Assembly (NCBI GenBank): GCA_016183565.1
Contig: JACPEJ010000001.1
Span: 293,241 to 357,240, forward strand
Direction of reading: 5' to 3'
DNA length: 64,000 bases
Origin: Candidatus Blackburnbacteria bacterium
Lineage (GTDB): Bacteria > Patescibacteriota > Microgenomatia > UBA8517 > UBA10165
Below are positions 16,394 to 64,000 of this stretch, piece by piece; position 1 is the first letter of the stretch; every line of letters begins with the position of its first letter. Both the position numbers and the translations under genes were made by a program. The notes below the pieces were generated by a model, which was not told the DNA's origin, searched no databases, and saw only the letters and a list, made by a program, of their open reading frames with translations.

Positions 16394-17929
16394 TTATATT
16401 TTCTGGCGTTTTTGAACAGTTACGGTTCCAAAGCTTTTTTCTTCTTCGATCCGTGTAAAGTAATTCTCCTCTTCAAAGAATTTTTCTATGGTTTGGTTTC
16501 TTATGCCAACAGTGGGCTCGATGATTAGAAATTGTGTTGAGGGCAAGGAAGATCTATTGTCTATAACAGGAATGTTTCCTGGGTACCCTTTTGCAACAGG
16601 TCCTATCCATAGTGGTAGTTTGCCGTATTTTTTATTCCCATACCATTCAAAAATGTAACTCCAGGTAGTATTTATATTAAACGGTATTGTTAAGCTGCGG
16701 ACGGCAAATGGTTCTCCTTTAGTATTTGTATAGATGTAATCTAACGCTTGTTTTTCGGAGGATAAAAGCATGCCGGGTTGAATAACTATATCGGAGTTTG
16801 GTCCTTTGTGGTTTATGGTTGATATTAGGTAAATATTGTTAACAATGATACCTATGGTAATTGTTAATGCAACTATTGAATATCTTTTGTAAAGCTTGTG
16901 GATTAGGTAGGCTGCCAACAAAAACAAGCTGACTGATGCAGCGGCGCTGTAATAGTAACTAGGGGTGCCAGATAGAAAATATGGGAGTAGTCCTCCTAAG
17001 AGCCAAATACATAGAAATGCCAGTTTTTTCCTAGTTTCTTTTTTGAAAAGAAGAAGACTAGCAGAGACTATAAGGAGGATACCTGGAATAAAAGTTAATG
17101 AGAAATTTGCGAGAAAACTGTCATGTAAAAATCGGTTTGTTGTAAAAATAATGGAACTAGGGTATATATCTGGACCGGATGTATTGCTTGTGGTGAACTT
17201 TGTTAGAAACCCTGAAAATAGTTCTAAGGTAAGGCGAAAATCAAATTTTATTTCAGACAAGATATATGTACTTACTGTTGTTAGAAAAGTGAATACTGAG
17301 ATGATGATGATTTTGTGGTTAATTCTTGGGAGCTTATGACGGAAAAGCAGAGCGAGGAGAAAGAGGCCTACTCCCAGAAGAATGTATACGTAGTGAAACT
17401 GTATTGATGTTCCCCAACCGAGGGTTGTTAAGATTAGACCTCGTTTGTCTTTTTTAAAAAATAGTAAATTTAAACCGAGATAAAATATTAGTACCGGAAT
17501 GACTGCCAATGGTTGGTGGCTAATAAAAAGAGAATACTGTGATTGTTCATATGAGACTGCAAAAAACAAAGCAGTTATTAAACCAATGTATCGGTTGAAC
17601 ATTAAGGAGCCAATAAGAAAGACCAGGAATATTCCTAATGCATTAAAGATTCGCAGGAATGCTGCTACTATCTCCGGGCTGTTTCCTCCGAGCCAGTATA
17701 GTGGTGCATAAACGTAAAAGATTAATGGACCAGGAAAGAGTTTGTCGCTTGCTGCAGAGGGAGGGCCGACTATCTTAAAATCTCCTTTTAAGATTTCTAG
17801 AGATGTGAAAGAATCACGTGCTTGGTCATACGCGAAGTAAATATTTTGGGGGAAGTACAAAAAGCGGATTATCAATCCAATGAAGAAAATTAGAAATATT
17901 AATTTGTTGTTTCTTGGGAAGTTTCTCAT
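16394..17929 (-). CDS. GT-C glycosyltransferase, GT39/PMT/ArnT-like polytopic membrane protein; paralog of 62064..63602
   Basis: 511 aa. N-terminal FxYDQARD...GPP...GPL motif shared with 38488, 41071 and 62064. Full-length similarity to 62064..63602, including C-terminal IEPT.G.R motifs. Confidence 0.75.
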   Translation of the reverse strand: MRNFPRNNKLIFLIFFIGLIIRFLYFPQNIYFAYDQARDSFTSLEILKGDFKIVGPPSAASDKLFPGPLIFYVYAPLYWLGGNSPEIVAAFLRIFNALGIFLVFLIGSLMFNRYIGLITALFFAVSYEQSQYSLFISHQPLAVIPVLIFYLGLNLLFFKKDKRGLILTTLGWGTSIQFHYVYILLGVGLFLLALLFRHKLPRINHKIIIISVFTFLTTVSTYILSEIKFDFRLTLELFSGFLTKFTTSNTSGPDIYPSSIIFTTNRFLHDSFLANFSLTFIPGILLIVSASLLLFKKETRKKLAFLCIWLLGGLLPYFLSGTPSYYYSAAASVSLFLLAAYLIHKLYKRYSIVALTITIGIIVNNIYLISTINHKGPNSDIVIQPGMLLSSEKQALDYIYTNTKGEPFAVRSLTIPFNINTTWSYIFEWYGNKKYGKLPLWIGPVAKGYPGNIPVIDNRSSLPSTQFLIIEPTVGIRNQTIEKFFEEENYFTRIEEEKSFGTVTVQKRQKI

Positions 17930-17936
17930 TCTGTTG

Positions 17937-18662
17937 TTATCTAGCGAAGAACTTGCCTCCTAGGCTTAGGTAGATTGCTAAATCGCGTAGAATTGAAAGT
18001 CCGTATACAAGTGATCTAGTGAGGTTTATAGAAGAGGCTTCAGGGAAGTATCGTACTGGGACTGGAGTTTCTCCGATTCTGGCGTTTCTGGCGATTGCGC
18101 CGAAAAGGATTTGTTGGTCGAAAACAAAATCATCTGAATATTTATGAAAGGGAATCTTTTGAAGGATTTCTCGACTGTAAGCTCTGAATCCGGTGTGGTA
18201 CTCAGAAAGATTCTGGCCTAATACGAGGTTTTCCGCAAGGGTTAAGAACCTGTTGGCAGTGTATTTCCAGGCGGGCATCCCTCCTTTTAATGCTTCTTCT
18301 CTGGTTCTGATTCGTGATCCCAGCATGACATCAAATCTTTTTTGCAAGATTGGGCGGATTAATTCGCCGGTTAGACTACTGTCATATTGGTAGTCCGGAT
18401 GGATCATTACCACAATGTCTGCTCCTTCGGAAAGTGCTAGTGTGTAGCAGGTTTTTTGATTTCCTCCGTATCCTCTGTTTTGGGGATGAACTGTGACCTT
18501 AAGACCAAGTTTTTTGGCGATTTTTACTGTGTGGTCGCTTGACCCATCATCTACAACTATTACTTCATCCACGGTGCCTTTGGGTATGTCTTTATATGTC
18601 TTAGCTATGGTTCTTGCGGCGTTATATGCTGGCATTACTGCGATGATTTTAGGTTTTCGCAT
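17937..18662 (-). CDS. GT2 glycosyltransferase, polyprenol-phosphate sugar synthase (DPM1/GtrB-like)
   Basis: AVMPAYNAA...VVDDGSSD...D.D motifs of a GT-A fold GT2 enzyme. Confidence 0.8.
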   Translation of the reverse strand: MRKPKIIAVMPAYNAARTIAKTYKDIPKGTVDEVIVVDDGSSDHTVKIAKKLGLKVTVHPQNRGYGGNQKTCYTLALSEGADIVVMIHPDYQYDSSLTGELIRPILQKRFDVMLGSRIRTREEALKGGMPAWKYTANRFLTLAENLVLGQNLSEYHTGFRAYSREILQKIPFHKYSDDFVFDQQILFGAIARNARIGETPVPVRYFPEASSINLTRSLVYGLSILRDLAIYLSLGGKFFAR

Positions 18663-20328
18663 GATTTTTCCTCCATAGGAAGAGGAGGGCTAGTATTGAA
18701 AAGATGCTAGTTAGTTTACTTATCTTTATTAAAAATGTCTCTTCGAATTTTACCACTATATTGTGCTGTCCGGCTTGGGTCTCAAATTGGATCCTTCCAC
18801 TTTTTTCTTTTGTAAAGGCCTTTTTTTGTTCGTCTTCATAGAGAACTATACCGGGAAAGACTAGGTGTTTAATGGTTACTGTTGTTTTTTCTGGAGCAGA
18901 AAAGGAAAACGCTAGAAGATTTGTGTTTCTTATTATTTTTTCTGGTTTAATATTTTCTGGTTCTATTAGAGGTACCTGGGGACCATAGATTAGGTTTAAG
19001 TTAGCAGTAAGTGGGAGGTATTCATGGAAAGAGTTTGTTGTTGTTTCTGCTGCAACATAGTCGGGAACAGAAAACGAAGTATACATATTGACTCTCAGAT
19101 GGTTGCGGTTTGTATAAAATGCTATAGCAAGCAAACTTGTGAATAAAAGAATTTTAAGTTTTTTGTTGGTAATAACATAGAGCGTTCCGCTCAAGATTGA
19201 TGCTGTAAAAGTTGCAGGCAGCATAAACATAGTTGGAGAATCTAGAGTGATGACTTTACTTAGAAGATCCCAAGCGGGGTGTGAGTAGTCGAGTATTGCG
19301 AAAATACTAAGTGCAAATCCGACTAATGAAGAAAGGATTAAGGGTGTAAATTTTTTATAGATCGATTCATTGACTAAGAATGTAAAAGTGGTTTTTAGTT
19401 TTTTGAACTCTTTAAATAAGAGAAACCACGTTACTACTAGTACTGAACTTAAAACAGTTAGCCATTGAGCGATGCCGATTTGCAGAGAGAAAGCACCTTC
19501 TTTGATGCTTTCTTTGTAAATTCCATAACCCCATTTGGAATAGATAAGTTGTGAGAAGTTTGCAAATCCGTGTTGGTAAAGATTGTCAAATGCGCCGGTT
19601 GAGACTTGTGTGAATTTACTGTAATAAACTGCGGGTATTAGATAAAAAGCTGACAGGCCGATTCCTAGAAGTAGCCCTTTTCCCGTAGCGGCTTTGTTGG
19701 TTTTTTGTGAAGACAGAATGAACAAAAATAGTATAGGAATAATTGAGAGGGTGGTCATCAGATGGGAAAGCAGTAGAGTACTTAATCCTACTGCTGTGAG
19801 TATTATTCCCGATCGTGTGGTTTTGTTGTTTGAAGTTTTTAATATTCCCAAGAACAGGAGAGGTAGGAAAGTGAATATGAAGGCTGTGCCGATAGAGCCG
19901 TAGACAAAAATAGTAACAAACCTGTAGGGTGCCCAGAGATAGAGCAGACTTGAAAGCAGGCTTGCCAATTTATTTTTAAGTAGATTGAATGCAAATATGT
20001 ACATAAAGATGCCAGATAGTAAATAGGAGATTACAAAGAGGGTTTTTAGGGAAATGGGTATGCTGTTGCTGATCCACAAGATGGGTAAGCCTATTATCCA
20101 GGGTAGATGGTAGGAGAAGAAAAATAGAGGGTAACCTAACCCGTGAGCTAGTGTTCCAATCCAGTAGGGTGGGTATTGACCTTCGCTTACTGCTTTTTGG
20201 TAGTGGTAAAACCGTGCAACTTGATGCCAGATATCGTGGGCTGAAAAAAGGCTGGTATGGAAGAGGGCCTTTGTGCCTATTAAGGCAAAGACTAAGATTA
20301 AGGTGAGAGGAATAGTGTGCTTTCTCAC
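18649..20328 (-). CDS. Polytopic membrane protein, YfhO/GT-C-like (HD..H..R...G.YP..W motif family)
   Basis: 559 aa, more than 10 TM helices. N-terminal loop HDIWHQVARFYHY...GQYPPYWIG...GYPLFFFSYHLP resembles the loop in 44900..46615 and YfhO proteins. Confidence 0.45.
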   Translation of the reverse strand: MRKHTIPLTLILVFALIGTKALFHTSLFSAHDIWHQVARFYHYQKAVSEGQYPPYWIGTLAHGLGYPLFFFSYHLPWIIGLPILWISNSIPISLKTLFVISYLLSGIFMYIFAFNLLKNKLASLLSSLLYLWAPYRFVTIFVYGSIGTAFIFTFLPLLFLGILKTSNNKTTRSGIILTAVGLSTLLLSHLMTTLSIIPILFLFILSSQKTNKAATGKGLLLGIGLSAFYLIPAVYYSKFTQVSTGAFDNLYQHGFANFSQLIYSKWGYGIYKESIKEGAFSLQIGIAQWLTVLSSVLVVTWFLLFKEFKKLKTTFTFLVNESIYKKFTPLILSSLVGFALSIFAILDYSHPAWDLLSKVITLDSPTMFMLPATFTASILSGTLYVITNKKLKILLFTSLLAIAFYTNRNHLRVNMYTSFSVPDYVAAETTTNSFHEYLPLTANLNLIYGPQVPLIEPENIKPEKIIRNTNLLAFSFSAPEKTTVTIKHLVFPGIVLYEDEQKKAFTKEKSGRIQFETQAGQHNIVVKFEETFLIKISKLTSIFSILALLFLWRKNHAKT

Positions 20329-22098
20329 AAGGTAATTCTACTCTTTTGTGATTTGCTGAGGTATTATATTTTTATGATGGTGGAGAAGATTGACTCCTTA
20401 AAAACTTCTACTGTGGTACTTATTATCGCAATTGTTGGGTTTTTGGCTTTTGCGAATATGCTTGGCAATGAGTTTGTATGGGATGACGAGGAACTTATTG
20501 TCGGAAATTCTGCACTTTTGCAACTTAGAAACGTGCCAGCTCTTTTTTCTCAATCAGTGTTTAATACTGGTGGGCCGAGCCTTTCAGGATGGGTTTATCG
20601 CCCGTTGCTTATGACCTTTTTCTCGTTGATTAATAGTTTGTTTGGATTGTGGCCGCCTGGTTTCCATCTAGTTCAACTTGCTTTTCATCTTACTAATGCG
20701 AGTCTCTTGTTTGTTCTATTAAAGAGGCTTTTGGGAGAGGTGAATAGGAAATTTGCAAAACCAGTTGCTTTTTTAATGGCGTTGATTTTTGCTGTTCATC
20801 CGGCTGGTGTCGAGGCAATATCTTATATTGCTCAACTTCCAGAATCTCTTCATACTTTTTTTGTGTTACTCTCATTTATCTTACTGCTTAATTCACTAGA
20901 CTGTCCTTCGAGGAATCGCTTGGTTGTGGTAGGATTTCTTTTTTTGCTTGGGTTGTTAACTAAAGAAAATGCGGTTGTATTTTTACCCATAGTTTTTTTC
21001 TATTTATTTTTGTTTGCAAGGGAAAAGCTTAAGGTATGGGGGTCTCTTTTTGTCGGTAGTTTTATTACCTACCTTGGAATAAGATTTGTTTTTTACGGGA
21101 TTCAAACTGAAAGACCACATTTTATTGCGCCGATATCTGATGCAAGTTTTTTTGAGAGATTGCTGACAGCTCCTTTTATATTCTTTACTTATTTAAAGAT
21201 ATTCTTTTTCCCTAATGTCTTATCAATTGCACAACATAATGTTATAAAGGACATGGTAGATAGTTCCTTTTTGGTTTCTCTGGTAGTTGTAGTTTTGTTT
21301 TGTTTAGTTTGCTTAGGGATTATATACAAGAAAAAATCTAAACTCGGGCTTTTCTTTTTTGTTTCTTTTCTTATCTCGCTTGGACCAACTCTTAATATAA
21401 TAATGCCTCTTGATATGTCTATAGCGGAACATTGGTTTTATTTTCCAATGACTCTCTTGATTGGGTTTTTGAGTGTGGTAGTGATTTCGACTAAGTTTTT
21501 GGTAAAACATTCTTCGGTTTTTGTAGTGGTTCTGTCAATGTTAATTGTTTTATTGGCAGGAAGAACCGTTGTGCGCAATGCAAACTGGAAAAATGGCCTT
21601 ACGCTTTACGGACATGATTTGCAATATCAACCAAATAATTTTGATTTAGAGAATAATTATGGTGTTGAAATTTTTAGAGTGGGGAGAGCGGAGGAGGCAT
21701 TAGTTCATTTTCAAAAGTCAGTAGAATTGCGTCCTCAATGGGATGTGTCAAATAATAATTTGGGGGCGGTATACGAACGTTTAGGAGACATTGGAAACGC
21801 GAAAGTTTATTACAAGCGATCAGTGCAACTTTCAGATTACTATATTGCTTATGATAATCTTTCTTCTTTGTTTGCTAAAACAGAGGAGCCGGATGAGGCG
21901 TTGAAATTTTTGGATGTGGCAATACGCAAGTTTCCGAACAGCGAACGTGTGAATAGTGCTTTGGCAATTACTTATTATAAAAAAGGTAATGTTGAGTCTG
22001 CTCTATACTTTGCTCGACAGGCAGTTTCTGTTTCTCCTACACAGCAGAATTTGTTTATATATGACACTATACTAAATAAGAAGAAGCTTGAGTTGTGA
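20317..22098 (+). CDS. TMTC/PMT-like GT-C membrane glycosyltransferase with C-terminal TPR repeats
   Basis: N-terminal FVWDDEELIVGN motif (DUF1736/PMT-like loop), multiple TM helices, then TPR-like repeats. Confidence 0.55.
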   Translation: MLSHKVILLFCDLLRYYIFMMVEKIDSLKTSTVVLIIAIVGFLAFANMLGNEFVWDDEELIVGNSALLQLRNVPALFSQSVFNTGGPSLSGWVYRPLLMTFFSLINSLFGLWPPGFHLVQLAFHLTNASLLFVLLKRLLGEVNRKFAKPVAFLMALIFAVHPAGVEAISYIAQLPESLHTFFVLLSFILLLNSLDCPSRNRLVVVGFLFLLGLLTKENAVVFLPIVFFYLFLFAREKLKVWGSLFVGSFITYLGIRFVFYGIQTERPHFIAPISDASFFERLLTAPFIFFTYLKIFFFPNVLSIAQHNVIKDMVDSSFLVSLVVVVLFCLVCLGIIYKKKSKLGLFFFVSFLISLGPTLNIIMPLDMSIAEHWFYFPMTLLIGFLSVVVISTKFLVKHSSVFVVVLSMLIVLLAGRTVVRNANWKNGLTLYGHDLQYQPNNFDLENNYGVEIFRVGRAEEALVHFQKSVELRPQWDVSNNNLGAVYERLGDIGNAKVYYKRSVQLSDYYIAYDNLSSLFAKTEEPDEALKFLDVAIRKFPNSERVNSALAITYYKKGNVESALYFARQAVSVSPTQQNLFIYDTILNKKKLEL

Positions 22099-31460: not shown

Positions 31461-31500
31461 GCTATGGAGCTATAGAGCTATGAGGCTATGAAGCTATATA
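31461..31500. repeat. Tandem 8-nt repeat (GCTATRRR x5) at the tsaE/tsaB junction, overlapping the tsaB start codon
   Basis: gctatgga gctataga gctatgag gctatgaa gctatata. The ATG of tsaB (31488) lies inside the 4th unit. Confidence 0.7.
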
Positions 31501-48743: not shown

Positions 48744-48927
48744 GGTGAGTTTAGTATAACACTGGTTTGTAAGGATTGCATTTTTATCGTACCTGGAACC
48801 CTAATTTAAACCTTTTCCACATGTCTTCGGAGACTACGGAGACCTCCTCGCCGTCTACCCTAATTGCGTCTTGATCGTCGGGAGCATAGAAAGTTAAGGG
48901 TTGGGTTAGAATTTGGTAAGTACGTGG

Positions 48928-54480: not shown

Positions 54481-54490
54481 TTAGGCTACA

Positions 54491-55408: not shown

Positions 55409-55414
55409 TCTAAT

Positions 55415-56335
55415 ATGATTAAAGTTTTTGCTGTTATCCTAAATTGGAACAGAAAGCAGGATACTATTGAATGTCTCGAGAGTATTAAAAAGTTAACTAT
55501 TTCTGGTTTTCAGTTTTCGGTTGTAGTTGTAGACAATGGTTCGATGGATGGATCTTGGGAGGTTCTTCAGTCTATCAAACTGCCGAGGATAGATTATCAC
55601 TTTATAGAAAACAAAGAGAATCTTGGGTATGCTGGGGGAAATAATGTTGGAATGAAGTATGCGCTTGACGCGGGGGCTGATTATGTTTTGGTGCTTAACA
55701 ACGATACTATTGTTAGTAGGGATTTAGTTGCCAATTTTTTGAATGCTGCAGAAGAACATAAAGAAGTGGGGATATTTTCACCCAAGATCTATTTTGCTCC
55801 TGGGTTTGAGTTTCATCAGGAAAGATACAAGAAGGATGAAACCGGAAGAGTTATTTGGTATGCAGGTGGTAAGTTTGATTGGAAGAATATTTTAGGGACA
55901 AACAGGGGGGTGGATGAGGTTGATAAAGGGCAATATAACAAGAGGATCAAGATAGATTTTGCCACAGGTGCATGTATGTTTATACGAAGAGAGTTGTTGG
56001 AGGCAGTGGGGTTATTTGATGAGAAGTATTTTTTGTATCTCGAGGATGTTGATCTTTCTAGTAGAGCAAAAAGACACAACTGGAAAATACTTTATTTGCC
56101 TAAAGCCCAACTTTGGCATAAAGTTTCTAGAAGTTCTGGTATTGGCAGTCAATTGAATGATTATTATATAACTCGTAACCGTCTCTTGTTTGGCAGGCGG
56201 TATGCTTCCTTCAGAGCTAAAATTGCATTGTTTCGTGAAGCTTTAGTGTTGCTTGTTTTTGGGCGAGAGTGGCAAAAGATTGGTGTTGCTGATTTTCTTT
56301 TGGGAAAGTTTGGTAGAGGCAGTTATTCTCCATGA
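55415..56335 (+). CDS. GT2 glycosyltransferase (rhamnosyltransferase WbbL-like)
   Basis: AVILNWNRKQDT...VVVDNGSMDGS...NNDT motifs. Confidence 0.85.
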   Translation: MIKVFAVILNWNRKQDTIECLESIKKLTISGFQFSVVVVDNGSMDGSWEVLQSIKLPRIDYHFIENKENLGYAGGNNVGMKYALDAGADYVLVLNNDTIVSRDLVANFLNAAEEHKEVGIFSPKIYFAPGFEFHQERYKKDETGRVIWYAGGKFDWKNILGTNRGVDEVDKGQYNKRIKIDFATGACMFIRRELLEAVGLFDEKYFLYLEDVDLSSRAKRHNWKILYLPKAQLWHKVSRSSGIGSQLNDYYITRNRLLFGRRYASFRAKIALFREALVLLVFGREWQKIGVADFLLGKFGRGSYSP

Positions 56336-57093
56336 AGACCAATGTGTCTGTGATTATTATTGCCAAAAATGCTGCAGATAAAATAGGTGATGCGATAGAT
56401 TCTGCAAAGGGTTTAACTTCTGATGTAGTTGTACTGGAGGGCGGTTCAGTCGATCAAACAGTTATGGTGTCTAAGAGTCATAATGCTCGTGTTGTAAAAC
56501 AGACTGGAAAGAATTTTTCGGAGTGGAGAAATCAGGGTATGGAAATATCTAAGGCCCCTTGGGTTCTTTATCTAGATCATGATGAGCGATTGATACCAGA
56601 GCTCAAGACGGAGGTAGAGAAACAGATAGAGGGCAGCAAGTTTGTGGCTTATGCTATACCAAGAAGGAATTTTATTTTAGGGAGAGAGTTTAAACATGGA
56701 GGTGAGTGGCCAGATTACCAACAACGATTGTTTTTTAGGGAAAGGTTTAAGAGGTGGGAAAAAGAATTACACGAGGAACCTCGGTTTGAGGGTAAACTTG
56801 GGTATCTTAAAAGCCCACTTATTCACTTGAAGCATGATAGTATTTCTGAGATGGTGGAGAAAACTAACAATTGGTCTGAAGTTGAGGCAAAACTACTTTT
56901 TGGGGCGAAGCATCCTCGGATGTCTTGGTGGAGATTTATACGGATTATGCTGATGGAGTTGTGGGATAGGTTGATATTGAAAAAAGGGATTTTAGATGGC
57001 GGAGAAGGGGTGGTATATTCACTTTATCAAATGTGGAGTAGGTATTTGACATATGCTAAATTGTGGGAAATACAACAAGGAGGTGGTAGGTGA
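56332..57093 (+). CDS. GT2 glycosyltransferase
   Basis: SVIIIAKNAADKI...YLDHDE motifs. Confidence 0.8.
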   Translation: MKTNVSVIIIAKNAADKIGDAIDSAKGLTSDVVVLEGGSVDQTVMVSKSHNARVVKQTGKNFSEWRNQGMEISKAPWVLYLDHDERLIPELKTEVEKQIEGSKFVAYAIPRRNFILGREFKHGGEWPDYQQRLFFRERFKRWEKELHEEPRFEGKLGYLKSPLIHLKHDSISEMVEKTNNWSEVEAKLLFGAKHPRMSWWRFIRIMLMELWDRLILKKGILDGGEGVVYSLYQMWSRYLTYAKLWEIQQGGGR

Positions 57094-58123
57094 TATGCGT
57101 GCTGTAATTTATGATCCCTATCTTGATACTGGTGGTGGCGGGGAGCGTTATATTTTAACTGTTGCCAGCCTTTTAATAAAAAAGGGTTGGCAGGTTGACG
57201 TATGCTGGCCGGATCCTAAGATAGGCAATTGGCTTAAGGAAAGACTAGGTATCGATCTTTCAAAAGTTACTTTTGTAGACAATACGTCACGAGGGGCTGG
57301 TTATGATTTAGTTTTCTGGCTTTCGGATGGGAGCATTCCTTTGTTGTTTGGTAAGAAAAATATTTTACACTTTCAGACGCCTTTTCAAAATGTAGGAGGT
57401 AAATCTATTTTAAATAAGGTAAAGTTCTTAAGGGTTAGTAGTGTTGTTTGTAATTCAAAGTTTACAAAGAGTTTTATAGATAAGGAATATGGAGTAACGA
57501 GCGTTGTTGTTTACCCGCCGGTTGATACCGAATTATTTAAACCGGGGAGGAAAGAAAATATTATTCTTTTTGTTGGTAGGTTTTCCCAATTGCAACAGTT
57601 AAAGCGCCAGGATGTTTTAGTTGAAAATTTTGGAAGGATGTGTGGTGCGGGTCTTAAGAATTGGAGACTGGTTTTGATTGGTGGTAGTGAAGTTGGTGGT
57701 AGGGAGTATGTTAAAGAACTAAGAGAGAAGGCAGTTTCTTTGCCGATTGATATCCTTGAGAATTTGCCTCTTCAAGAGGTGCAAAAATATTATGCTGAGT
57801 CAAAGATATTTTGGTCTGCTGTTGGGTATGGGGTAGATGAATTAGAATCACCTTATCAAGTCGAGCATTTTGGAATGAGTGTTGTGGAGGCACAGGCGGC
57901 TGGTTGTGTTCCTGTGGTTATTTCTAAGGGTGGACACAAAGAGATAATAGTAAATGGAGAGAATGGGTTGTTGTGGGTGGAAGACGGGGAGTTGAGAGAA
58001 GCAACACTTCAATTGATTAAAGACGAAAGGAGGATGAGAGAAATTGCCAAGAAAGCAAAAGAGGATGCGGAGAGATTCTCAGTCCAAGAGTTCAAGAGGA
58101 AAATTTTGGAAACTATTAGTTAG
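57053..58123 (+). CDS. GT4 glycosyltransferase (GT-B fold)
   Basis: C-terminal E...FGMSVVEAQAAGCVPVVISKGGHKEII GT4 signature. Confidence 0.85.
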   Translation: MLNCGKYNKEVVGDMRAVIYDPYLDTGGGGERYILTVASLLIKKGWQVDVCWPDPKIGNWLKERLGIDLSKVTFVDNTSRGAGYDLVFWLSDGSIPLLFGKKNILHFQTPFQNVGGKSILNKVKFLRVSSVVCNSKFTKSFIDKEYGVTSVVVYPPVDTELFKPGRKENIILFVGRFSQLQQLKRQDVLVENFGRMCGAGLKNWRLVLIGGSEVGGREYVKELREKAVSLPIDILENLPLQEVQKYYAESKIFWSAVGYGVDELESPYQVEHFGMSVVEAQAAGCVPVVISKGGHKEIIVNGENGLLWVEDGELREATLQLIKDERRMREIAKKAKEDAERFSVQEFKRKILETIS

Positions 58124-59207
58124 AATATGGCCGACATTTGCAATTATCGCAGTTGTATTAATTTTCTTCTATCCTGTTTGGGTTAAAAATTTAATACCTC
58201 TTCCTGCTGACTTTGTTGTGGGTGTTTATTATCCTTGGCTTGACTATAAGTGGGGGTTTTCTGTAGGGGTACCGGTTAAGAACCCCATGACTACGGATGT
58301 TGTTTCGTTTGTATATCCAATGCAAATGTTGGCTATTGATCTTATTAAGAGTGGACAATGGCCTTTGTGGAATCCTTATATCTTAACCGGAACTCCTCTT
58401 CTTGCTAATTTTCAGTCAGCTCCGTTTTCTCCAACGAACTTTGTTTATTTCCTTTTTGACAGATTGACGGCGTGGAGTGTGCAGGTTGCTTTGCAGCATT
58501 TTTTGGCGGCGATATTTACCTATCTCCTGCTTCGTTACTGGAAAGTTTCAAGATTGTCATCTGTTTTAGGAGGTGTGATTTTTGCTTTTAGCGGATTTAA
58601 TACTATTTGGTCTCAGTGGAATGGGCATGCCTTATCAGGAGCGTTTATACCTTTATTAATTCTTCTTGAAGATAGGTGGTTAAAAATTGGCAAATGGCGA
58701 GATGGTGCGTTGTTTTCGGTTGTACTATCGGCACAAATCTTGTCAGGTTATCCACAAGTGGTTTTTTATACAGGAGTTGCGTTAGTGTTATTGGCAATTT
58801 TTAGGTTTGAGAAAACAACAAGATGGTTGGGAAGATTGGGTGGATTGGGGATATTTGGATTGTTGGGAATTGGGTTGTCGTCTTTTCAAATTTTACCCGG
58901 TGCGGAGCTTCTTTCTCTATCTCAGCGAGAGATAGAGCCACATCCTTATGGGTGGGCTTTTTTGCCTTGGGTTAAAATAATTACATTTTTGGCTCCTGAT
59001 TACTTTGGAAATCATGCAACTCAGAATTACTGGGGGCCTCAAGATTATACGTCAAATACTGGTTTTGTAGGGGTAGTGGCATTTAGCTTAGCTGTGGCGG
59101 GAGCTATGCTATTGAGAAAAAAGCGAGAAGTTATTTACATTGTGCTTGTGTTAGTGTTTGCACTCCTTTTATCTTTTCCTACCCCAATCTCAGTGTTTTT
59201 ATGGTAA
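58044..59207 (+). CDS. YfhO-family membrane protein, N-terminal part (ends at in-frame TAA 59205..59207)
   Basis: GQWPLWNPYILTGTPLLANFQSAPFSP matches the YfhO LPLWNPY..G.P motif. Confidence 0.6.
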   Translation: MPRKQKRMRRDSQSKSSRGKFWKLLVRIWPTFAIIAVVLIFFYPVWVKNLIPLPADFVVGVYYPWLDYKWGFSVGVPVKNPMTTDVVSFVYPMQMLAIDLIKSGQWPLWNPYILTGTPLLANFQSAPFSPTNFVYFLFDRLTAWSVQVALQHFLAAIFTYLLLRYWKVSRLSSVLGGVIFAFSGFNTIWSQWNGHALSGAFIPLLILLEDRWLKIGKWRDGALFSVVLSAQILSGYPQVVFYTGVALVLLAIFRFEKTTRWLGRLGGLGIFGLLGIGLSSFQILPGAELLSLSQREIEPHPYGWAFLPWVKIITFLAPDYFGNHATQNYWGPQDYTSNTGFVGVVAFSLAVAGAMLLRKKREVIYIVLVLVFALLLSFPTPISVFLW

Positions 59208-59279
59208 AGCGGTCTCTTTGGTTTTCAAGCTGCGTCAGCACATAGGGCGTTAGTCCTATTTAATTTAAGTGTTGCTCTT

Positions 59280-60512
59280 TTGGCAGCGTTTGGAGCGGAC
59301 TGTTTTTTGGAGACAGGAAAACTGCGACTGAGAACACTTTTGCCGGCTTTTTCGATTTTGATAGTTTTTAGTGTTATATCTGTCTATTTTTATCTTAACC
59401 CTCCTTCTGTTATTGATCCTACCAACAACAATCTTTTTGGGGCGGAGCGGGCTGATTACCGGGTAGGATTGCGGAACTTAGTTTTGCCAATTCTTGCATT
59501 TTTTTCGTCTCTCCTGGTTTTTAAGGTGACTGGTGGCGTGAACAGAGTTCGTCAGTTGAGTCTTGTACTAGTTTTTTTGATTATGCTAACAGAGCTTTAC
59601 TGGTTTTGGGCGAAATTTACGCCTTTTTCTCCAAGAAGGATTGTATTCCCCAAAACACCAGTTTTAGAGTTTTTGGAAAAACAGGAAAAGCCCTTTAGAA
59701 CTACTGGTTATAAAGTAATTCCGATAAACATGAGGATGCCGTACAAAATTGAAACTTTAGAAGGTTATGATGCAATCTATCCACTTTCGCTATCGCAGTT
59801 TGTTGCCGCTATAACTAGTGGAAAAAGTGGGACTCAGCCTGTTGGTAGGTATGCCACAATAGGTGACGAAACGGTCAAAGCGTTGGATTTGGTGAATGTT
59901 AAGTATGTTATTGCTGTAAAAAGAGATGAGCGGAGTAGGCCGTCTCCCGAAGGGAAGATTGCTTCCTCTTTGGAGAATCCAAAGCTGCAATTGGCTTACG
60001 AGGATAAATCAGTTGTAGTTTTGGAGAGCCGGAATGTTTTACCTCGTGCTTTTGTGGTTTACTCTTGGGAAAGGTCATTAGGGAACAAGACGCTAGATCG
60101 TTTTCTTGATCCAGATTTTCCGATTAGTGAAAAAGTTTTTCTAGAGGAAGAACTTGGGTTTGTAAATAAGGCAGCAGGAAAAGGAGAATCTAGTGTGCTC
60201 TACGAAAAATATAGTGATCAAGAAAGTATGTTTAAGGTGAGAACCTCAAAGGATGGTCTTTTGTTTGTTTCTGATACATACTATCCAGGTTGGAAGGCAT
60301 ATGTAGATGATGTTGAAACGAAGATATATAAGGCCAATTTCGCGTTTAGGGCTATAGCAGTTCCAGCTGGAGAGCATGTTGTGAAGATGACTTATAAACC
60401 TGACTCCTTTTTTAATGGATTGAGGCTATCAGCTATTTCTTTGACGTTTCTTTTGTTGGGTGGAGTTACTAAGGTACTTATTGGCAGGAAACATGGAAAA
60501 GCCTATACTTGA
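59280..60512 (+). CDS. YfhO-family membrane protein, C-terminal part; same frame as 58044..59207
   Basis: 59280-58044 = 1236 = 3x412. No other stop between 59208 and 59279 (SGLFGFQAASAHRALVLFNLSVALLAAFGA...). Combined length 822 aa is typical for YfhO. Confidence 0.55.
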   Translation: MAAFGADCFLETGKLRLRTLLPAFSILIVFSVISVYFYLNPPSVIDPTNNNLFGAERADYRVGLRNLVLPILAFFSSLLVFKVTGGVNRVRQLSLVLVFLIMLTELYWFWAKFTPFSPRRIVFPKTPVLEFLEKQEKPFRTTGYKVIPINMRMPYKIETLEGYDAIYPLSLSQFVAAITSGKSGTQPVGRYATIGDETVKALDLVNVKYVIAVKRDERSRPSPEGKIASSLENPKLQLAYEDKSVVVLESRNVLPRAFVVYSWERSLGNKTLDRFLDPDFPISEKVFLEEELGFVNKAAGKGESSVLYEKYSDQESMFKVRTSKDGLLFVSDTYYPGWKAYVDDVETKIYKANFAFRAIAVPAGEHVVKMTYKPDSFFNGLRLSAISLTFLLLGGVTKVLIGRKHGKAYT

Positions 60513-60520
60513 ACAGTTAA

Positions 60521-61195
60521 ATGGGGAACTTAGCTGTTTCGGTAACTTACAAGAGAGCTGTAGATTTGCATCAACACGTGCCTCCTGATTGGTATGCAAG
60601 ATCTATTAAAGAGAATGTCCTTCAATGGTTTTGGCACACAACGAGGTTTAAGGAAGTGAGTGGTTTAATTGAGAAGGCTGGAGGTAGGGTACTTGATATT
60701 GGTTGTGCAGATGGAACTTTTACAAAGGTAGTTCTTAGTCAGTCTGGTGCTTCGGAAGTTGTGGGTATAGATATACTTCCAAAGTCGGTTGCTTATGCAA
60801 AACGTCGTTTTGCCCGAAGCAAAAAACTTTCTTTTAGGGTTGCTGATGCTCATAAGTTGCCATTTCCCAGTAGATCCTTTGATGCTGTATTTTGTCTTGA
60901 GACGCTGGAACATGTAGCAGATCCGGATATGGTAATTTCTGAAATCTACAGAGTTTTAAAAGATGATGGTTATGCAATAATTTTAGTACCCTCCGAAAAT
61001 CTTATTTTTCGCTTTGCGGTCTGGCCTCTGTGGACGCTTTGGCGTGGTAGAATCTGGAAAGGTACCCATATACAAAATCTATCTACAAAGGAGCTTCTTG
61101 CAAAAATGGATAACGGAAAATTTGAGATTAAGGAATATAAAAAGTTTTTATTGGGGATGCTTCAAGTAATTAAAGTAGCCAAAAAACAGTTATGA
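60521..61195 (+). CDS. Class I SAM-dependent methyltransferase
   Basis: VLDIGCADGTF (motif I), DAVFCLETLEHVADP. Confidence 0.8.
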   Translation: MGNLAVSVTYKRAVDLHQHVPPDWYARSIKENVLQWFWHTTRFKEVSGLIEKAGGRVLDIGCADGTFTKVVLSQSGASEVVGIDILPKSVAYAKRRFARSKKLSFRVADAHKLPFPSRSFDAVFCLETLEHVADPDMVISEIYRVLKDDGYAIILVPSENLIFRFAVWPLWTLWRGRIWKGTHIQNLSTKELLAKMDNGKFEIKEYKKFLLGMLQVIKVAKKQL

Positions 61196-62070
61196 CAACT
61201 GTAGTTGTAATTCCAAATTGGAATGGTCTGGTGCTTTTAGAAAGGAACCTGCCGGCGGTAATGAAGCTAAAAGCTGACGAGATTATTGTTGTTGATGATT
61301 GCTCTTCTGATGAAAGTGTTGCTTTTTTGGAAAAGAATTATCCTCAAGTTATTCTGATTAAAAATGAGAAAAATTTAGGGTTTTCGAGAAGCGTCAACAA
61401 AGGAGTATTGGCAGCTTCTTCAGACATAGTGTTTTTACTTAACTCTGATGTTATTCCAAGTTTGGGAATTGTAAAACCTGTTCTTGCTCATTTTAAAAAG
61501 CCCGATGTTTTTGGTGTGTCGTTTGCGGAGGTTGGGTATTCTTGGGCGAAGCCGAAGCTCACGCATGGTTATTTAGGGCATGAGTCTGGCGAGAAGACAA
61601 ACAAAGCGCATGACACTTTTTGGGTAAGTGGTGGTAGTGGAGCTTTCAGGCGATCTATGTGGTTAGAACTTGGTGGGATGGATACTCTTTTTACCCCATT
61701 TTATTGGGAGGATGTTGATCTTTCTTTAAGGGCTCTTAAAAAGGGGTGGAAACTTATTTGGGAGCCTAAGGCGATAGTGGAACACAAACACGAGTCAACG
61801 ATTAATACTACTTACTTTTCCAGAAGATATTTGCATTATATTAAAGAAAGAAACGAGCTTTTGTTTAATTGGAAATACTTAGACAAAAAATATCTTTTTC
61901 GACAGCATTTTCCAGGGATTATTTGGAGGTTGAAACATCCGGGTTATTTGATAGTTTTATTGTTGGCTCTTTCCAAATTGCCTTTTGTTTTACGCCAGCG
62001 AGTACTGGTGAGACAAGAGAGCTTCTTGAGTATTAAGGATGTATTGTTGAAATTTGGTGTTAAATGTTAA
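61192..62070 (+). CDS. GT2 glycosyltransferase
   Basis: VVVIPNWNG...VVDDCSSDES...NSD motifs. Confidence 0.85.
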   Translation: MTTVVVIPNWNGLVLLERNLPAVMKLKADEIIVVDDCSSDESVAFLEKNYPQVILIKNEKNLGFSRSVNKGVLAASSDIVFLLNSDVIPSLGIVKPVLAHFKKPDVFGVSFAEVGYSWAKPKLTHGYLGHESGEKTNKAHDTFWVSGGSGAFRRSMWLELGGMDTLFTPFYWEDVDLSLRALKKGWKLIWEPKAIVEHKHESTINTTYFSRRYLHYIKERNELLFNWKYLDKKYLFRQHFPGIIWRLKHPGYLIVLLLALSKLPFVLRQRVLVRQESFLSIKDVLLKFGVKC

Positions 62071-63602
62071 AAAGCAAAAGCTGTTTTCTTCTTTTGGCAA
62101 TATTTATACTAGGTGTTGTCCTGCGAGTTTTATTTTTTCCTGGGAATATTTATTTTGGTTTTGATCAAGCAAGAGATGCATACGAGTCCCAAAATATTTA
62201 CGAAAACTTTGACTTAAAGTTAATTGGACCGTCGACAGCTTTGGAAAACCTATTTCATGGTCCTCTTTACTGGTATTTGATTGGTCCATTGTATCTGATG
62301 GGGAATGGAAATCCAGAATTTCCTGCGCTTTTTCTTTTGATTCTTAATGCCGTTGGGGTGTTTATAATTTATTGTATTGGTGCTGTTTTGGCAAATAAAC
62401 TAGTTGGGTTTTTGGCAGCTTTCCTTTACGCTGTTTCTTTTGAACAAACGCAATATGCCCTTTATTTTGGCAACCCTGGCCCTGCGGTTATCTGCATACT
62501 TTTGTTTTATTTGGGCATCTTGCTTTTTGGGATTAGGAAAAAATGGTGGGGTATTCCTCTTTCGATGTTTGCATGGGGAATGTCGATCCAGTTTGAGTTT
62601 TTCCTTGTATATCTAGGTGTTATTTTTTTGGCGTTGGTTTTTGTTTTCAGGAGAAGGTTACCAGTGGTTCTTAGGCCATCGAGAATTTTTGTTTCTGTCC
62701 TCTCTTTTTTAGTTCCACTTTCCACTTTTATACTGGCGGAGATTAAATATGGTTGGAGGACTGTATTGACGCTAGCTCATTTGATAAGTAGTAGTGGGGG
62801 TTCTAGAGATTTGGGCAAGATAATAACAGTTTACTTTTCTAATTTGACTTTGCACATACGGCACAATCTCTTTTCCTTTAATGAAAATTTAGCACGAGTG
62901 GTATTGATTTTTTTGGTGGGTTTGGGATTTTACTTTTTGTTAAGGAGAGGAAAAGAGAGACGAGTAGCTGTGTTTTTGTTAATTTGGTTTTTTTCGAGTA
63001 GTGTTATATTAATATTTGGCAATCCTGAGTTGTATTATTCTGATATCGGTGTTTCGGCGGGAGTATTGCTTTTAGTGGCATATTTTCTTGTAAAATTGTT
63101 TAAGAAAAGCGTGTTAATTTCTAGCGTTTTATTGGGAGTTTTAGTTATAAGTAATTTCTCTTTGATTCGTAAGCAGAATCCGCAGGGAATAATAAATGGT
63201 ATTTATGTTCAGGAAGGGATGTTGTTGTCTAGGGAAAAAGAGATGATAGATTACATCTATAGGGAGGCCCGTGGTCGACCAATTGTGGTTTCTGGGAGCA
63301 CGATGCCTTTGAAAATCAACACAACTTGGGCGTATTTGTTTAACTGGTATGGAAAGGGGGAATATGGATATTTACCGTACTGGACAGGAGAGGTGGCACT
63401 TGGATATCCGGGTAGTTTGCCTTCTTGGAAGTCCCAAGAAACGGAGTATGTGATGTTTAGCATAATAGAGCCTACAAGAGGTGTGAGAGGAGCGTTTATA
63501 GAAAACTTTTTAGTGGAACAAGAACAATATGGTGTTGTACGAGAAGAGAGGATTTTTGGCGTGAATCCCCAAGCGCAGTTTGTTGTGCAAAGAAGGCAAT
63601 AA
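62064..63602 (+). CDS. GT-C glycosyltransferase GT39/ArnT-like; inverted paralog of 16394..17929
   Basis: FGFDQARD...IGPSTALENLFHGPLYWYLIGP and C-terminal IIEPTRGVRG motifs, collinear with 16394..17929. Confidence 0.75.
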   Translation: MLKSKSCFLLLAIFILGVVLRVLFFPGNIYFGFDQARDAYESQNIYENFDLKLIGPSTALENLFHGPLYWYLIGPLYLMGNGNPEFPALFLLILNAVGVFIIYCIGAVLANKLVGFLAAFLYAVSFEQTQYALYFGNPGPAVICILLFYLGILLFGIRKKWWGIPLSMFAWGMSIQFEFFLVYLGVIFLALVFVFRRRLPVVLRPSRIFVSVLSFLVPLSTFILAEIKYGWRTVLTLAHLISSSGGSRDLGKIITVYFSNLTLHIRHNLFSFNENLARVVLIFLVGLGFYFLLRRGKERRVAVFLLIWFFSSSVILIFGNPELYYSDIGVSAGVLLLVAYFLVKLFKKSVLISSVLLGVLVISNFSLIRKQNPQGIINGIYVQEGMLLSREKEMIDYIYREARGRPIVVSGSTMPLKINTTWAYLFNWYGKGEYGYLPYWTGEVALGYPGSLPSWKSQETEYVMFSIIEPTRGVRGAFIENFLVEQEQYGVVREERIFGVNPQAQFVVQRRQ

Positions 63603-64000
63603 TGAAGGAACTATCTGTAGTAATTGTTAATTATAATACTGGTGAGTTGTTGGGAAAATGTGTTGATTCAGTCAAAAAAACAGCAGGGTTCGCTGAAATT
63701 ATAGTTGTTGATAATGCATCGACTGATGGATCGGGCCGCGCTTTGCGGAATTTTCAATTTTCAATTTTCAATTTTCAATTTATAGAAAACAAAAAGAACT
63801 TGGGGTTTGCAAGGGCTGTAAATCAGGGAATAAAAAAAGCGAAGGGGGAATATATTCTGCTTCTCAACCCTGATACTGTTGTTGAGCCAAAGGCGATTGA
63901 TAATATGCTTCAGTTTGCAAAGCTGGAACCTTCTGTGGGTGCAATAGGTGCTAGGTTGTTGAATCCAGACGGTTCGGTTCAGGGGTCTGTTATGCACTTT
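63602..64000 (+). CDS. GT2 glycosyltransferase (3'-truncated by window edge) containing an in-frame heptanucleotide repeat tract
   Basis: ATG at 63602 overlaps the upstream TAA (TAATG). MKELSVVIVNYNTGELL...VVDNASTDGS...ENKKNLGFARAVNQG. Not in the ORF track because there is no stop within the window. Confidence 0.8.
   Translation, partial: MKELSVVIVNYNTGELLGKCVDSVKKTAGFAEIIVVDNASTDGSGRALRNFQFSIFNFQFIENKKNLGFARAVNQGIKKAKGEYILLLNPDTVVEPKAIDNMLQFAKLEPSVGAIGARLLNPDGSVQGSVMHF
63740..63772. repeat. Heptanucleotide tandem repeat (AATTTTC)x4 plus a partial unit inside the GT2 coding sequence
   Basis: Encodes NFQFSIFNFQF between the DGS and ENKKNLGFA motifs. Unit length is not a multiple of 3. Confidence 0.85.

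Follow-up and report, generated by a model that had tools for sequence, protein, structure and literature searches.

The question raised by this locus is whether the glycan machinery crowded into positions 16394-64000 of the window (the whole 64,000-nt stretch analysed) of Candidatus Blackburnbacteria (Microgenomates/Patescibacteria), an ultra-small bacterium, represents a variable island of exchangeable modules, as a sequence-only reading had proposed, or a fixed part of the chromosome of this lineage. Gene content was checked by means of Pfam, NCBIfam and PDB sequence searches, BLASTP paralogy and two AlphaFold models, and the density claimed in that reading (at least 13 GT-C and at least 10 GT2 genes) was reproduced: the region encodes 13 GT-C membrane glycosyltransferases and ten GT2 enzymes (17937-, 34335+, 35293+, 37772+, 42620+, 54491+, 55415+, 56332+, 61192+ and the partial gene from 63602), together with the GT4, Wzx flippase and methyltransferase also claimed, each matched by HMM (Table 1). 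Glycan genes account for 32,297 of its 47,607 bases (68%), the block being broken up by approximately 15 housekeeping or defence genes, so that in such a compact genome adjacency need not mean common function. The region is probably a lineage-conserved chromosomal neighbourhood that holds several parallel extracytoplasmic glycosylation modules, which would fit the known multi-component transmembrane type, and one Wzx-dependent oligosaccharide branch.

Table 1 Features of the glycosylation region and candidate acceptors, in window coordinates.
Feature	Position	Strand	Basis
Small TP-rich protein, LPKTG sortase signal at end, candidate acceptor	2314..2688	-	sequence
GT-C, PMT_2 type, D-Q-x-R-D subfamily	16394..17929	-	PF13231 26.6 bits vs 26.1 cut-off; FAYDQARD
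GT2, synthase-like	17937..18662	-	PF00535 83.8 bits; no TM helix predicted
GT-C candidate, PTPS_related-like	18649..20328	-	10 TM segments predicted; paralogue of 44900+
GT-C with C-terminal TPR, TMTC-like architecture	20317..22098	+	PMT_2 22.4 bits, under 26.1 cut-off
Small GT-C, 390 aa	23401..24573	+	PMT_2 29.8 bits; paralogue of 36516-
Secreted protein, (T/S)P-rich linker, C-terminal TM anchor, candidate acceptor	29791..30648	+	sequence
GT2, polyprenyl-P-sugar synthase-like	34335..35291	+	PF00535 90.3 bits; best NCBIfam PgfS
DPMS-type synthase, GT2 fused to GtrA/DPMS TM domain	35293..36519	+	PF00535; PF04138 52.8 bits
Small "Gpi18-like" GT-C, 393 aa, highly conserved	36516..37697	-	predicted structure
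GT2, synthase-like, no TM helices	37772..38515	+	PF00535 86.4 bits; NCBIfam PgfS/AglJ-like
GT-C, PMT_2 type, D-E-x-R-D	38488..40074	+	PF13231 47 bits; FLGDEGRD
DHH/DHHA1 phosphoesterase (NrnA-like)	40071..41069	+	PF01368 + PF02272
GT-C, PMT_2 type, D-Q-x-R-D	41071..42633	+	PF13231 31.7 bits; FYYDQGRD
GT2, synthase-like, no TM helices	42620..43375	+	PF00535 102 bits
GT-C, PMT/ArnT-like	43372..44946	+	PMT_2 38.2 bits; D-E in first loop
GT-C candidate, PTPS_related family	44900..46615	+	PF10131 24.8 bits vs 26.4 cut-off
Membrane-anchored FKBP prolyl isomerase, Ser/Thr/Gln-rich linker, candidate acceptor	46619..47209	-	PF00254
GT-C, PMT_2 type	49746..51290	+	PF13231 28.6 bits
Wzx-type (MOP) flippase	51306..52796	+	Polysacc_synt_3 173.5 bits
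Pfam-less GT-C, OST/ArnT-like fold, AglB-like C-terminal domain	52738..54480	+	overlaps Wzx stop codon
Three GT2 (54491, 55415, 56332), oligo/polysaccharide-building type	54491..57093	+	PF00535
GT4 (GT-B fold) glycosyltransferase	57053..58123	+	PF00534, PF13439
YfhO-family GT-C	58044..60512	+	N- and C-terminal YfhO parts matched separately
SAM-dependent methyltransferase	60521..61195	+	Methyltransf_11 96 bits
GT2, MftF/EpsD-like	61192..62070	+	NCBIfam
GT-C, PMT_2 type, D-Q-x-R-D	62064..63602	+	PF13231 27.2 bits; FGFDQARD; paralogue of 16394-
GT2 5' part, leaves window	63602..64000	+	translation MKELSVVIVNYN...; resembles 55415+ (repeat D2)

The membrane proteins, which an HMM check might have assigned to unrelated transporters, are GT-C enzymes. 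Seven reach the Pfam cut-off for PMT_2 (16394-, 23401+, 38488+, 41071+, 43372+, 49746+ and 62064+), several PMT_2 scores lying at or under that threshold, and, YfhO apart (no such residue is evident there), all GT-C candidates examined have an acidic residue just after TM1. The loop motif F.[FY]D[QE].RD, followed by IGP...GP..Y, is real and present in 16394-, 62064+, 41071+ and 38488+ (the last with orthologues in six of six relatives) because these four paralogues are homologous (BLASTP E 1e-112 to 3e-6). Their earlier assignment to GT39 did not hold, as they match PMT_2 and none matches PF02366 (the GT39/PMT model), which is matched by 43372+ only and weakly (20.3 bits against a cut-off of 22.7); residues D43 and E44 of 43372+ are invariant, and its orthologues match PF02366. 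The orthologues of 44900+ do match PF10131 significantly, and 18649-, with zero matches in the Pfam search, is 25% identical to 44900+ over 569 aa (BLASTP E 2.5e-29). In 20317+, for which 12 TM segments are predicted, WDDEE follows TM1 and many TPR matches fall at residues 411-577. Protein 36516- has no Pfam match; the top 37 Foldseek PDB matches of its AF2 model (pLDDT 91.5, pTM 0.91) are all GT-C, while its homologues sporadically match PMT_2, PMT, GT87 or PIG-M and are in some cases labelled "Gpi18-like mannosyltransferase" by JGI. Its gene lies on the strand opposite to its neighbours, the 3' end overlapping the end of 35293+ and the 5' end facing 37772+.

The YfhO-like assignment was correct as to family, but both parts come from one gene, which a lone TAA interrupts in frame at 59205-59207, the two halves being in the same reading frame; in contig L092 of the same organism the codon is GAA and the 815-aa gene is intact. 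Together with the marginal scores of several HMM matches, this stop might suggest an assembly or binning error, or a decaying pile of paralogues, in a metagenome-assembled genome. Such an artefact has an almost negligible probability, since the stop reflects one G>T difference absent from another assembly, all other listed ORFs are uninterrupted, and the same genes in the same order are present in independent Logan assemblies (several runs), including those of the same organism, as well as in MAGs of related species at NCBI. In the central block (approximately 33.5-54.5 kb), gene order and 1:1 orthologues, 41-75% identical, are kept in six contigs of relatives, which belong to Blackburnbacteria or Woesebacteria or are unclassified; the site of the phosphoesterase gene 40071+ between two PMT_2 genes is kept in all relatives examined, and the Wzx orthologues in L090 and L091 are 53% identical.

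This conservation bears directly on the proposal that modules are swapped among strains and that the block is inverted or recombined by means of its outer GT39 paralogues, a proposal which is already largely refuted and which we regard as very improbable. In its favour, 16394- and 62064+ are opposite in orientation and mutual best matches (BLASTP), and some variation is indeed seen, consisting of a few paralogue gains or losses and a defence-gene spot: L089 has an additional PMT_2 paralogue and three PTPS-like copies, L090 an additional PMT_2 paralogue and a Bro-N insertion, and L087 has lost 34335+ from its tandem with 35293+ (38% identical). Against it, the modular variability that had been expected is largely contradicted by the conserved core order and 1:1 orthology. 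At the protein level the outer paralogues are 38% identical, no inverted DNA match is better than one of 46 nt at 72%, and GC skew stays uniformly positive throughout the region, minus-strand genes included, so that inversion is unsupported. Nor do these paralogues bound an island, given that another GT2 gene begins at 63602, glycosylation genes running past that position, and housekeeping genes are interspersed; no tRNA, integrase or transposase was found at the region edges. The stretch is thus a fixed, lineage-wide neighbourhood, and since every central-block enzyme has a 1:1 orthologue in six relatives, the set is likely to represent a fixed multi-step envelope pathway with a core function rather than a diversifying decoration system.

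How sugars would be supplied is indicated by five of the GT2 enzymes (17937-, 34335+, 35293+, 37772+ and 42620+), whose best NCBIfam matches are polyprenyl-phosphate-sugar synthases. Across this set, with the PDB searched for 35293+ and 42620+, the best-matched synthases are AglJ, PpgS, PgfS, ArnC, GtrB and DPMS; the NCBIfam matches are all far under the curated cut-offs, including those of 17937- to AglJ, PpgS and dolichyl-P-hexose transferase, and specific functions are therefore not transferable. In the PDB, 35293+ aligns over its full length to the archaeal DPMS of P. furiosus (5MLZ, E 5.5e-34), and 42620+ best matches ArnC, GtrB (5EKP) and DPMS. Four of the five adjoin or overlap GT-C genes, and four are without a predicted TM helix, three of the latter overlapping or abutting GT-C genes. 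Overlaps or gaps of at most 2 nt separate 37772/38488/40071/41071/42620/43372/44900, a seven-gene operon (37772-46615) in which the first gene overlaps the 38488 ORF and 42620+ overlaps a GT-C gene on each side; likewise 51306/52738 and the minus-strand trio 18649 > 17937 > 16394, of which 16394- is the final gene. This packing is naturally read as pointing to a lipid-linked monosaccharide that serves as donor on the outer face, and the pairs 17937/16394, 37772/38488 and 42620/43372 named in the sequence-only reading support it. The fourth, 61192/62064, is not a DPM-like pair because 61192+ is EpsD/MftF-like (NCBIfam), and the "six or more" DPM/ArnC-like enzymes are accordingly reduced to five.

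By homology, the five synthases, one of them DPMS-type and carrying its own GtrA-like membrane domain, would use a nucleotide sugar to glycosylate polyprenyl phosphate at the cytoplasmic face, after which the lipid-linked monosaccharide would be flipped across the membrane and twelve or thirteen GT-C enzymes would pass the sugar to acceptors outside it. Nucleotide-sugar synthesis genes are absent from the window. The 51306-63602 block would provide a lipid-linked oligosaccharide, made by its cytoplasmic GT2 and GT4 enzymes, to be flipped by Wzx, transferred or extended by the OST/ArnT-like 52738+ and possibly modified by YfhO, the PMT_2 protein 62064+ and the methyltransferase. The best NCBIfam matches of 54491+, 55415+ and 56332+ are EpsD and rhamnosyltransferase rather than synthases; a priming phosphoglycosyltransferase and a Wzy polymerase for this branch were not found in the window. 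An unexpected observation was that 52738+ belongs to a highly conserved GT-C family that has no Pfam model; in one protein, P0399 (1639 aa), Wzx, a middle domain and a GT-C are fused.

Likely acceptors are Ser/Thr/Pro-rich linkers in surface proteins that carry an anchor, a glycopolymer of the wall or membrane, or both. Both Pro/Thr-rich proteins that had been proposed as acceptors exist, that at 29791+ containing a tandem 12-nt periodic repeat (repeat D1). It is possible, though unlikely, that the GT-Cs work one after another on a single lipoglycan or wall polysaccharide, polymerising and branching it from polyprenyl-phosphate sugars much as mycobacterial LM, LAM or arabinogalactan is made, with no protein glycosylation. 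Many distinct GT-Cs, each with a conserved 1:1 orthologue, would suit such a multi-step pathway; AftA, AftB, PimE and Emb are among the structural neighbours, 36516- and 23401+ match the NCBIfam domain "cell surface glycopolymer formation protein", and the TM-less synthases are reminiscent of mycobacterial Ppm1, which requires a membrane partner. On the other side, the PMT-like 43372+ (D-E motif, orthologues matching PF02366) points to protein O-glycosylation, the TPR-bearing 20317+ suggests protein acceptors, and TP-rich surface proteins are encoded nearby. Glycopolymer synthesis and the parallel modules favoured here are not mutually exclusive.

Among known systems, those for multi-component LTA/WTA glycosylation (PMC8035078, PMC5836110) and the three-component glycosylation systems (PMC11127046) combine a GtrB/CsbB/ArnC-type GT2, a GtrA/GtcA flippase and a GT-C (GtrC, YfhO, ArnT) (PMC8035078, PMC5836110, PMC11127046). 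Shared with them are the adjoining synthase and GT-C genes, the YfhO and ArnT/PMT_2-type enzymes and a GtrA-family domain (35293+). The region differs in holding five synthases and 13 GT-Cs in 48 kb (the longest contig of this genome being approximately 0.69 Mb), compared to one to three systems; in the predominance of synthases without a predicted TM helix; in the phosphoesterase conserved within the operon; and in the GtrA-type flippase, for which no separate gene was found in the window, the sole GtrA domain being that fused in 35293+. Its genes belong to a syntenic core and have no phage or serotype association. The membrane and C-terminal domains of 52738+ resemble those of oligosaccharyltransferases, and, as with STT3/AglB/PglB, its gene adjoins a Wzx flippase and cytoplasmic glycosyltransferases; unlike these, it lacks the WWDYG motif and any STT3 match in Pfam or NCBIfam, and many of its homologues carry a large additional N-terminal domain.

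In streptococci, GtrB/PgfS and a GT-C (PgtC2/PgfM) O-glycosylate Ser/Thr-rich disordered regions, including those of the prolyl isomerase PrsA (PMC12041528), by likeness to which FKBP 46619- is a candidate acceptor. Of the five synthase-like GT2s, four have PgfS first or second among their NCBIfam matches, at scores far under the equivalog cut-off, and anchored proteins with Ser/Thr/Pro-rich linkers, a prolyl isomerase among them, are likewise encoded in or beside the cluster; here, however, the isomerase is of the FKBP and not the PrsA/parvulin type. The mycobacterial and corynebacterial PPM/DPA-dependent GT-C pathways, which assemble LM/LAM (PMC3485146) and arabinogalactan by means of Ppm1, PimE, MptA-C, AftA-D and Emb (PMC3485146, PMC3123699), belong to unrelated hosts, and sequence searches placed none of the proteins in GT87, GT85, GT53 or another mycobacterial family; nevertheless, apart from the structural neighbours named above, they share with this region soluble synthase domains, probably needing a membrane partner, and a large set of distinct, conserved GT-Cs supplied by polyprenyl-phosphate-sugar synthases.

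A Pfam scan was performed on 49 open reading frames (ORFs, named here by their start coordinate in the window and their strand) of 16394-64000 and on 10 upstream ORFs, and an NCBIfam scan on 20 glycosyltransferase ORFs. Together with paralogy and structure models, these scans identify 13 candidates for GT-C enzymes (membrane glycosyltransferases) and 10 genes of family GT2, nine of which are complete, in agreement with the counts and coordinates of the sequence-only reading. Pfam matches likewise bear out the GT4 gene, the Wzx flippase (Polysacc_synt_3, 173 bits) and the SAM methyltransferase that it had placed in the span. Although glycosylation genes occupy 68% of 16394-64000, they do not form the contiguous island, closed at 62064, which had been proposed: the partial tenth GT2 gene starts at 63602, and non-glycosylation genes are scattered throughout the span (see table).

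Features located in the window, with position where assigned
Feature	Position	Remark
TP-rich LPKTG protein	2314-	candidate acceptor
Secreted protein with (T/S)P-rich linker and C-terminal anchor	29791+	candidate acceptor
Membrane-anchored FKBP with Ser/Thr/Gln-rich linker	directly after operon 37772-46615	candidate acceptor
Class II aaRS	22153	in span, non-glycosylation
Release factor, TsaE, TsaD-domain fragment, TrmD		in span, other translation/tRNA genes
FtsE/FtsX, PcsB-like M23 protein, VanZ		in span, cell-division/wall genes
CAP-domain protein, RNaseH-like protein, DHH phosphoesterase, FKBP		in span, further non-glycosylation genes
PD-(D/E)XK nuclease, DNA methylase		in span, defence-type genes
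103-aa ORF	31488-31799	directly after TsaE
DHH/DHHA1 (NrnA-like) phosphoesterase	40071-41069	between two PMT_2 genes
Spot variable among relatives	46619-49737	
YfhO gene	58044-60512	ORFs 58044-59207 and 59280-60512; in-frame TAA at 59205-59207
GCTTCCTTCGGAAGGGC element, first copy	31198-31250	in frame inside TsaE
GCTTCCTTCGGAAGGGC element, second copy	38495-38547	at GT2 37772 / PMT_2 38488 junction
Short repeats with TTTGCACATCGGGAG	14-50, 1740-1776, 1764-1796, 2081-2113	
tRNA-Gln	1783-1854	

Among the GT-C candidates, seven (16394-, 23401+, 38488+, 41071+, 43372+, 49746+ and 62064+) match PMT_2 at or above the Pfam gathering score. The loop motif quoted for the four paralogues 16394-, 38488+, 41071+ and 62064+ is found in each of them, with DE in 38488+ and DQ in the other three; their assignment to GT39 is not supported, as all four match only PMT_2 (PF13231) and none matches PF02366. 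Soon after TM1 the remaining GT-C candidates have an acidic residue, which is not clearly seen in the YfhO-like protein. The ORF closest to PF02366 is 43372+, which scores 20.3 bits, under the 22.7 cut-off, while its orthologues do match this family; its first extracytoplasmic loop reads FADEAIY, in which D43 and E44 are invariant across seven orthologues. The supposed TMTC-like protein 20317+ does combine a GT-C enzyme with a C-terminal TPR array, but its PMT_2 score (22.4 bits) falls short of the cut-off of 26.1 and DUF1736 gave no match at E <= 0.01, so that TMTC membership is not upheld. For 44900+, PTPS_related scored 24.8 bits against a cut-off of 26.4, its orthologues matching at unmarked significance, and 44900+ has a full-length paralogue (E 2.5e-29) in 18649-, which is without a Pfam match.

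Because neither 36516- nor 52738+ has a Pfam match, both were modelled from alignments of their database homologues. The 36516- model (pLDDT 91.5, pTM 0.91) retrieved GT-C proteins as all of its top 37 Foldseek matches in the PDB (STT3, PglB, Pmt4, ALG9, ArnT, PIG-U, ALG6 and PimE), which confirms the GT-C fold. Membership in PIG-V/Gpi18 (PF04188) is not upheld: 36516- gave no Pfam match even at E <= 5, and the sole match of 23401+ is PMT_2, although some 36516- homologues are named 'Gpi18-like' by JGI. A phmmer comparison of the PMT_2 proteins with PDB sequences gave no match, and hhalign of shallow orthologue profiles returned weak or no signal for the three GT-C profile pairs (36516 vs 38488, probability 9%; 44900 vs 43372, 45%; 52738 vs 43372, 0.2%). 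Fold evidence was taken in its place.

Five of the GT2 proteins (17937-, 34335+, 35293+, 37772+ and 42620+) have polyprenyl-phosphate-sugar synthases as their best NCBIfam matches (AglJ, PpgS, PgfS, ArnC and dolichyl-P-hexose transferase), all of them far under the equivalog cut-offs. Full-length alignment of 35293+ with the Pyrococcus DPMS (polyprenyl-phosphate-sugar synthase type) 5MLZ includes the membrane domain (E 5.5e-34), and the PDB entries that match 42620+ best are ArnC, GtrB (5EKP) and DPMS. The C-terminal GtrA/DPMS transmembrane domain of 35293+ is the sole occurrence of PF04138 (GtrA/GtcA) in the window, the small ORFs scanned there giving no match to it. In four of the five synthase-like proteins no transmembrane helix is predicted, and three of these four genes overlap or abut GT-C genes. 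Since 61192+ resembles MftF, EpsD and PgaC rather than DPM or ArnC, the synthase-like GT2 proteins number five and not, as had been read, six or more.

Synthase-like and GT-C genes are adjacent in the sets 18649/17937/16394, 37772/38488, 41071/42620/43372 and 35293/36516, and the genes of 37772-46615 (GT2, PMT_2, DHH, PMT_2, GT2, PMT_2 and PTPS-like) overlap or lie <=2 nt apart. Homology supports the proposal that each pair would use a lipid-linked sugar donor, except for the pair containing 61192+, which is not DPM-like. The DHH phosphoesterase gene is wedged between its PMT_2 neighbours with stops and starts overlapping or abutting, a position kept in 6/6 relatives examined; the protein is possibly tied to the glycosylation operon, e.g. 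by hydrolysing a nucleotide by-product.

Relatives were chosen through homologues of the DHH protein (41-64% identity), and the ORFs of their contigs were matched to the window proteins. The resulting six contigs comprise three Blackburnbacteria-type relatives, one Woesebacteria MAG and two without a lineage name. The same order recurs in all six, the orthologues pairing 1:1 at 41-75% identity: (TrmD) - GT2:GtrA - small GT-C (opposite strand) - GT2 - PMT_2 - DHH - PMT_2 - GT2 - PMT_2, followed by PTPS-like GT-C(s), or by Wzx - 52738-like GT-C - GT2. Differences are few: one additional PMT_2 paralogue in each of the contigs L089 and L090, three inverted copies of the PTPS-like gene in L089, loss of the tandem GT2 in L087 and an inserted Bro-N gene in L090. 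The stretch that separates the PTPS-like GT-C from the following PMT_2/Wzx also varies: the window has the FKBP there, along with a PD-(D/E)XK nuclease, an N6/N4 DNA methylase and two small ORFs, of which one is weakly antitoxin-like. In L087, PD-(D/E)XK is accompanied by a type I restriction R subunit at this spot; L090 and L091 are without the insert. Independent assemblies of the same organism have the same arrangement. The idea of a modular variable island, for which synteny among relatives had been named as the check, is thereby mostly refuted: the neighbourhood is a vertically conserved core with modest paralogue turnover. A search of genome contigs with the DHH protein found nothing, and one with SecA found only distant bacteria (~45-54% identity), whose SecA gene has none of the 16-24 kb block's GT-C genes as a neighbour.

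Inversion of the block through its outermost paralogues is not borne out either. Although 16394- and 62064+ are mutual best matches, they share only 38% amino-acid identity, and their longest inverted DNA match, 46 nt at 72% complementarity, is too weak for homologous recombination; the GC skew does not reverse at either boundary, which speaks against a recent inversion. No tRNA, integrase or transposase was found at the island edges, the only tRNAs of the window being at 1.8 and 7.0 kb, and a repeat search found no long direct or inverted repeats. By repeats, tRNA/integrase content, composition and patchiness this is not a mobile or invertible island, its GC content being uniform and its synteny conserved. 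The window has ~40% GC; G makes up 24.7% and C 15.6% of its + strand (GC skew +0.23), and all 2-kb bins show a positive skew, as do the minus-strand genes; comparable G/C strand disparity is reported for other Microgenomates (PMC7143001).

Several small features were also recorded. A ~55-nt A-rich element with the hairpin GCTTCCTTCGGAAGGGC occurs in exactly two copies that are 87% identical (0 expected by chance); the copy in TsaE adds ~18 aa that the Pfam model lacks, and the two copies may represent a small insertion element that preserves the reading frame. The 103-aa ORF next to TsaE covers no more of the 264-position PF00814 (TsaD-family) model than positions 25-84 and may be a truncated TsaB/TsaD-like protein, a comparable 101-aa gene being called in L087. 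The TTTGCACATCGGGAG repeats surround tRNA-Gln and small ORFs upstream of the TP-rich LPKTG protein.

The Wzx-linked protein 52738+ belongs to a large family, for which the 90% database yields 1,420 homologues (E <= 1e-5) and the 50% library 1,550 clusters, yet Pfam and NCBIfam scans matched no family and its family profile gave nothing meaningful against PDB sequences and Pfam. The best homologues among the matches listed are 55-66% identical and the orthologues in L090 and L091 48-49%, the DHH proteins of most of these relatives being 41-46% identical. In the window, L090 and L091 alike the ORF overlaps the Wzx stop codon, and the NCBI start at 52849 probably cuts into TM1. Many homologues (e.g. 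P0361, P0370 and P0380) measure 1,000-1,160 aa, of which ~450-590 aa belong to an N-terminal domain that has no annotation. A Wzx fusion was rejected for most of them, these domains lacking Wzx similarity; among the long homologues only P0399 (1,639 aa) carries a Wzx domain, fused through a middle region to a 52738-type GT-C. Compared with STT3/AglB/PglB, 52738+ is oligosaccharyltransferase (OST)-like only in fold: no STT3 model of Pfam or NCBIfam matches it, and it was rejected as a canonical OST because the WWDYG motif is absent (neither WWD nor DYG occurs).

In the proposed scheme, the three GT2 proteins and GT4 of the Wzx block would build a lipid-linked oligosaccharide, Wzx would flip it and 52738+ would then transfer or extend it, while YfhO, 62064+ and the methyltransferase may modify the glycan. 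Of the Wzx/Wzy pathway, Wzx is present; no large ORF of the window matches Wzy_C/O-antigen ligase, and no priming phosphoglycosyltransferase was found in the window. The YfhO-like protein predicted earlier matches PF09586 in two ORFs of one frame, the first carrying the N-terminal part (profile 74-326) and the second the C-terminal part (profile 755-835, 59 bits), separated by a single in-frame TAA. A split gene was ruled out: the TAA is a strain polymorphism or consensus error, because L092, assembled independently from the same organism, reads GAA (Glu) at this site and carries an intact 815-aa gene annotated YfhO.

As for the product, the TPR-bearing 20317+ and the PMT-like 43372+ suggest protein acceptors, for which the table lists candidates. 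An equally serious explanation for part of the set is a glycopolymer assembly line of mycobacterial style (PMC3485146), which is compatible with protein glycosylation and not exclusive of it.

Taken jointly, these data allow a tentative reading which we consider rather doubtful as a whole. In Microgenomatia, ~5% of a genome smaller than a megabase would go to a conserved extracytoplasmic assembly line of GT-C enzymes, comparable in complexity to the mycobacterial LM/LAM/AG machinery, its product being an as yet undescribed major surface glycoconjugate or heavy O-glycosylation of anchored proteins. The transmembrane-less DPM1-like synthases might dock on the adjoining GT-C proteins and so channel the lipid-linked sugar. 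The 52738+ family would represent a new lineage of bacterial oligosaccharyltransferases or glycan ligases, because it joins an OST-like membrane domain to an AglB-like C-terminal domain while WWDYG is missing, and because the gene overlaps Wzx and retains 48-66% identity among relatives.

Patescibacteria are ultra-small, mostly uncultured and thought to be host-attached, and to our knowledge next to nothing is known of their surface chemistry. From the conserved grouping of 13 GT-C genes with five for lipid-sugar synthases, a heavily glycosylated surface is predicted, which may bear on attachment, phage resistance and envelope stability, and the Pfam-less, Wzx-linked 52738+ family is a target for biochemistry. 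No paper linking GT-C enzymes (or GT39, GT83 or PMT) with CPR/Patescibacteria was found in the literature searched, one Microgenomates genome paper merely mentioning '29 glycosyl transferases' (PMC7143001).

The enzyme classes are all of known kinds. Unusual are the concentration of five synthases and 13 GT-C genes within a single neighbourhood of a genome <1 Mb, the maintenance of this neighbourhood as a syntenic core among the examined relatives, the transmembrane-less synthases directly beside GT-C genes, the embedded DHH phosphoesterase, and a large OST-like GT-C family that is unannotated and linked with Wzx. The synthase/GT-C sets, in which a GT2 polyprenyl-phosphate-monosaccharide synthase (by homology) is encoded alongside a GT-C transferase, would follow the same logic as published multi-component transmembrane glycosylation systems (PMC8035078, PMC5836110, PMC11127046), the steps being inferred. 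In streptococci, GtrB/PgfS and a GT-C enzyme glycosylate disordered linkers like those of the candidate acceptors (PMC12041528); the prolyl isomerase PrsA is among their substrates, and the FKBP with its linker may be an analogue here.
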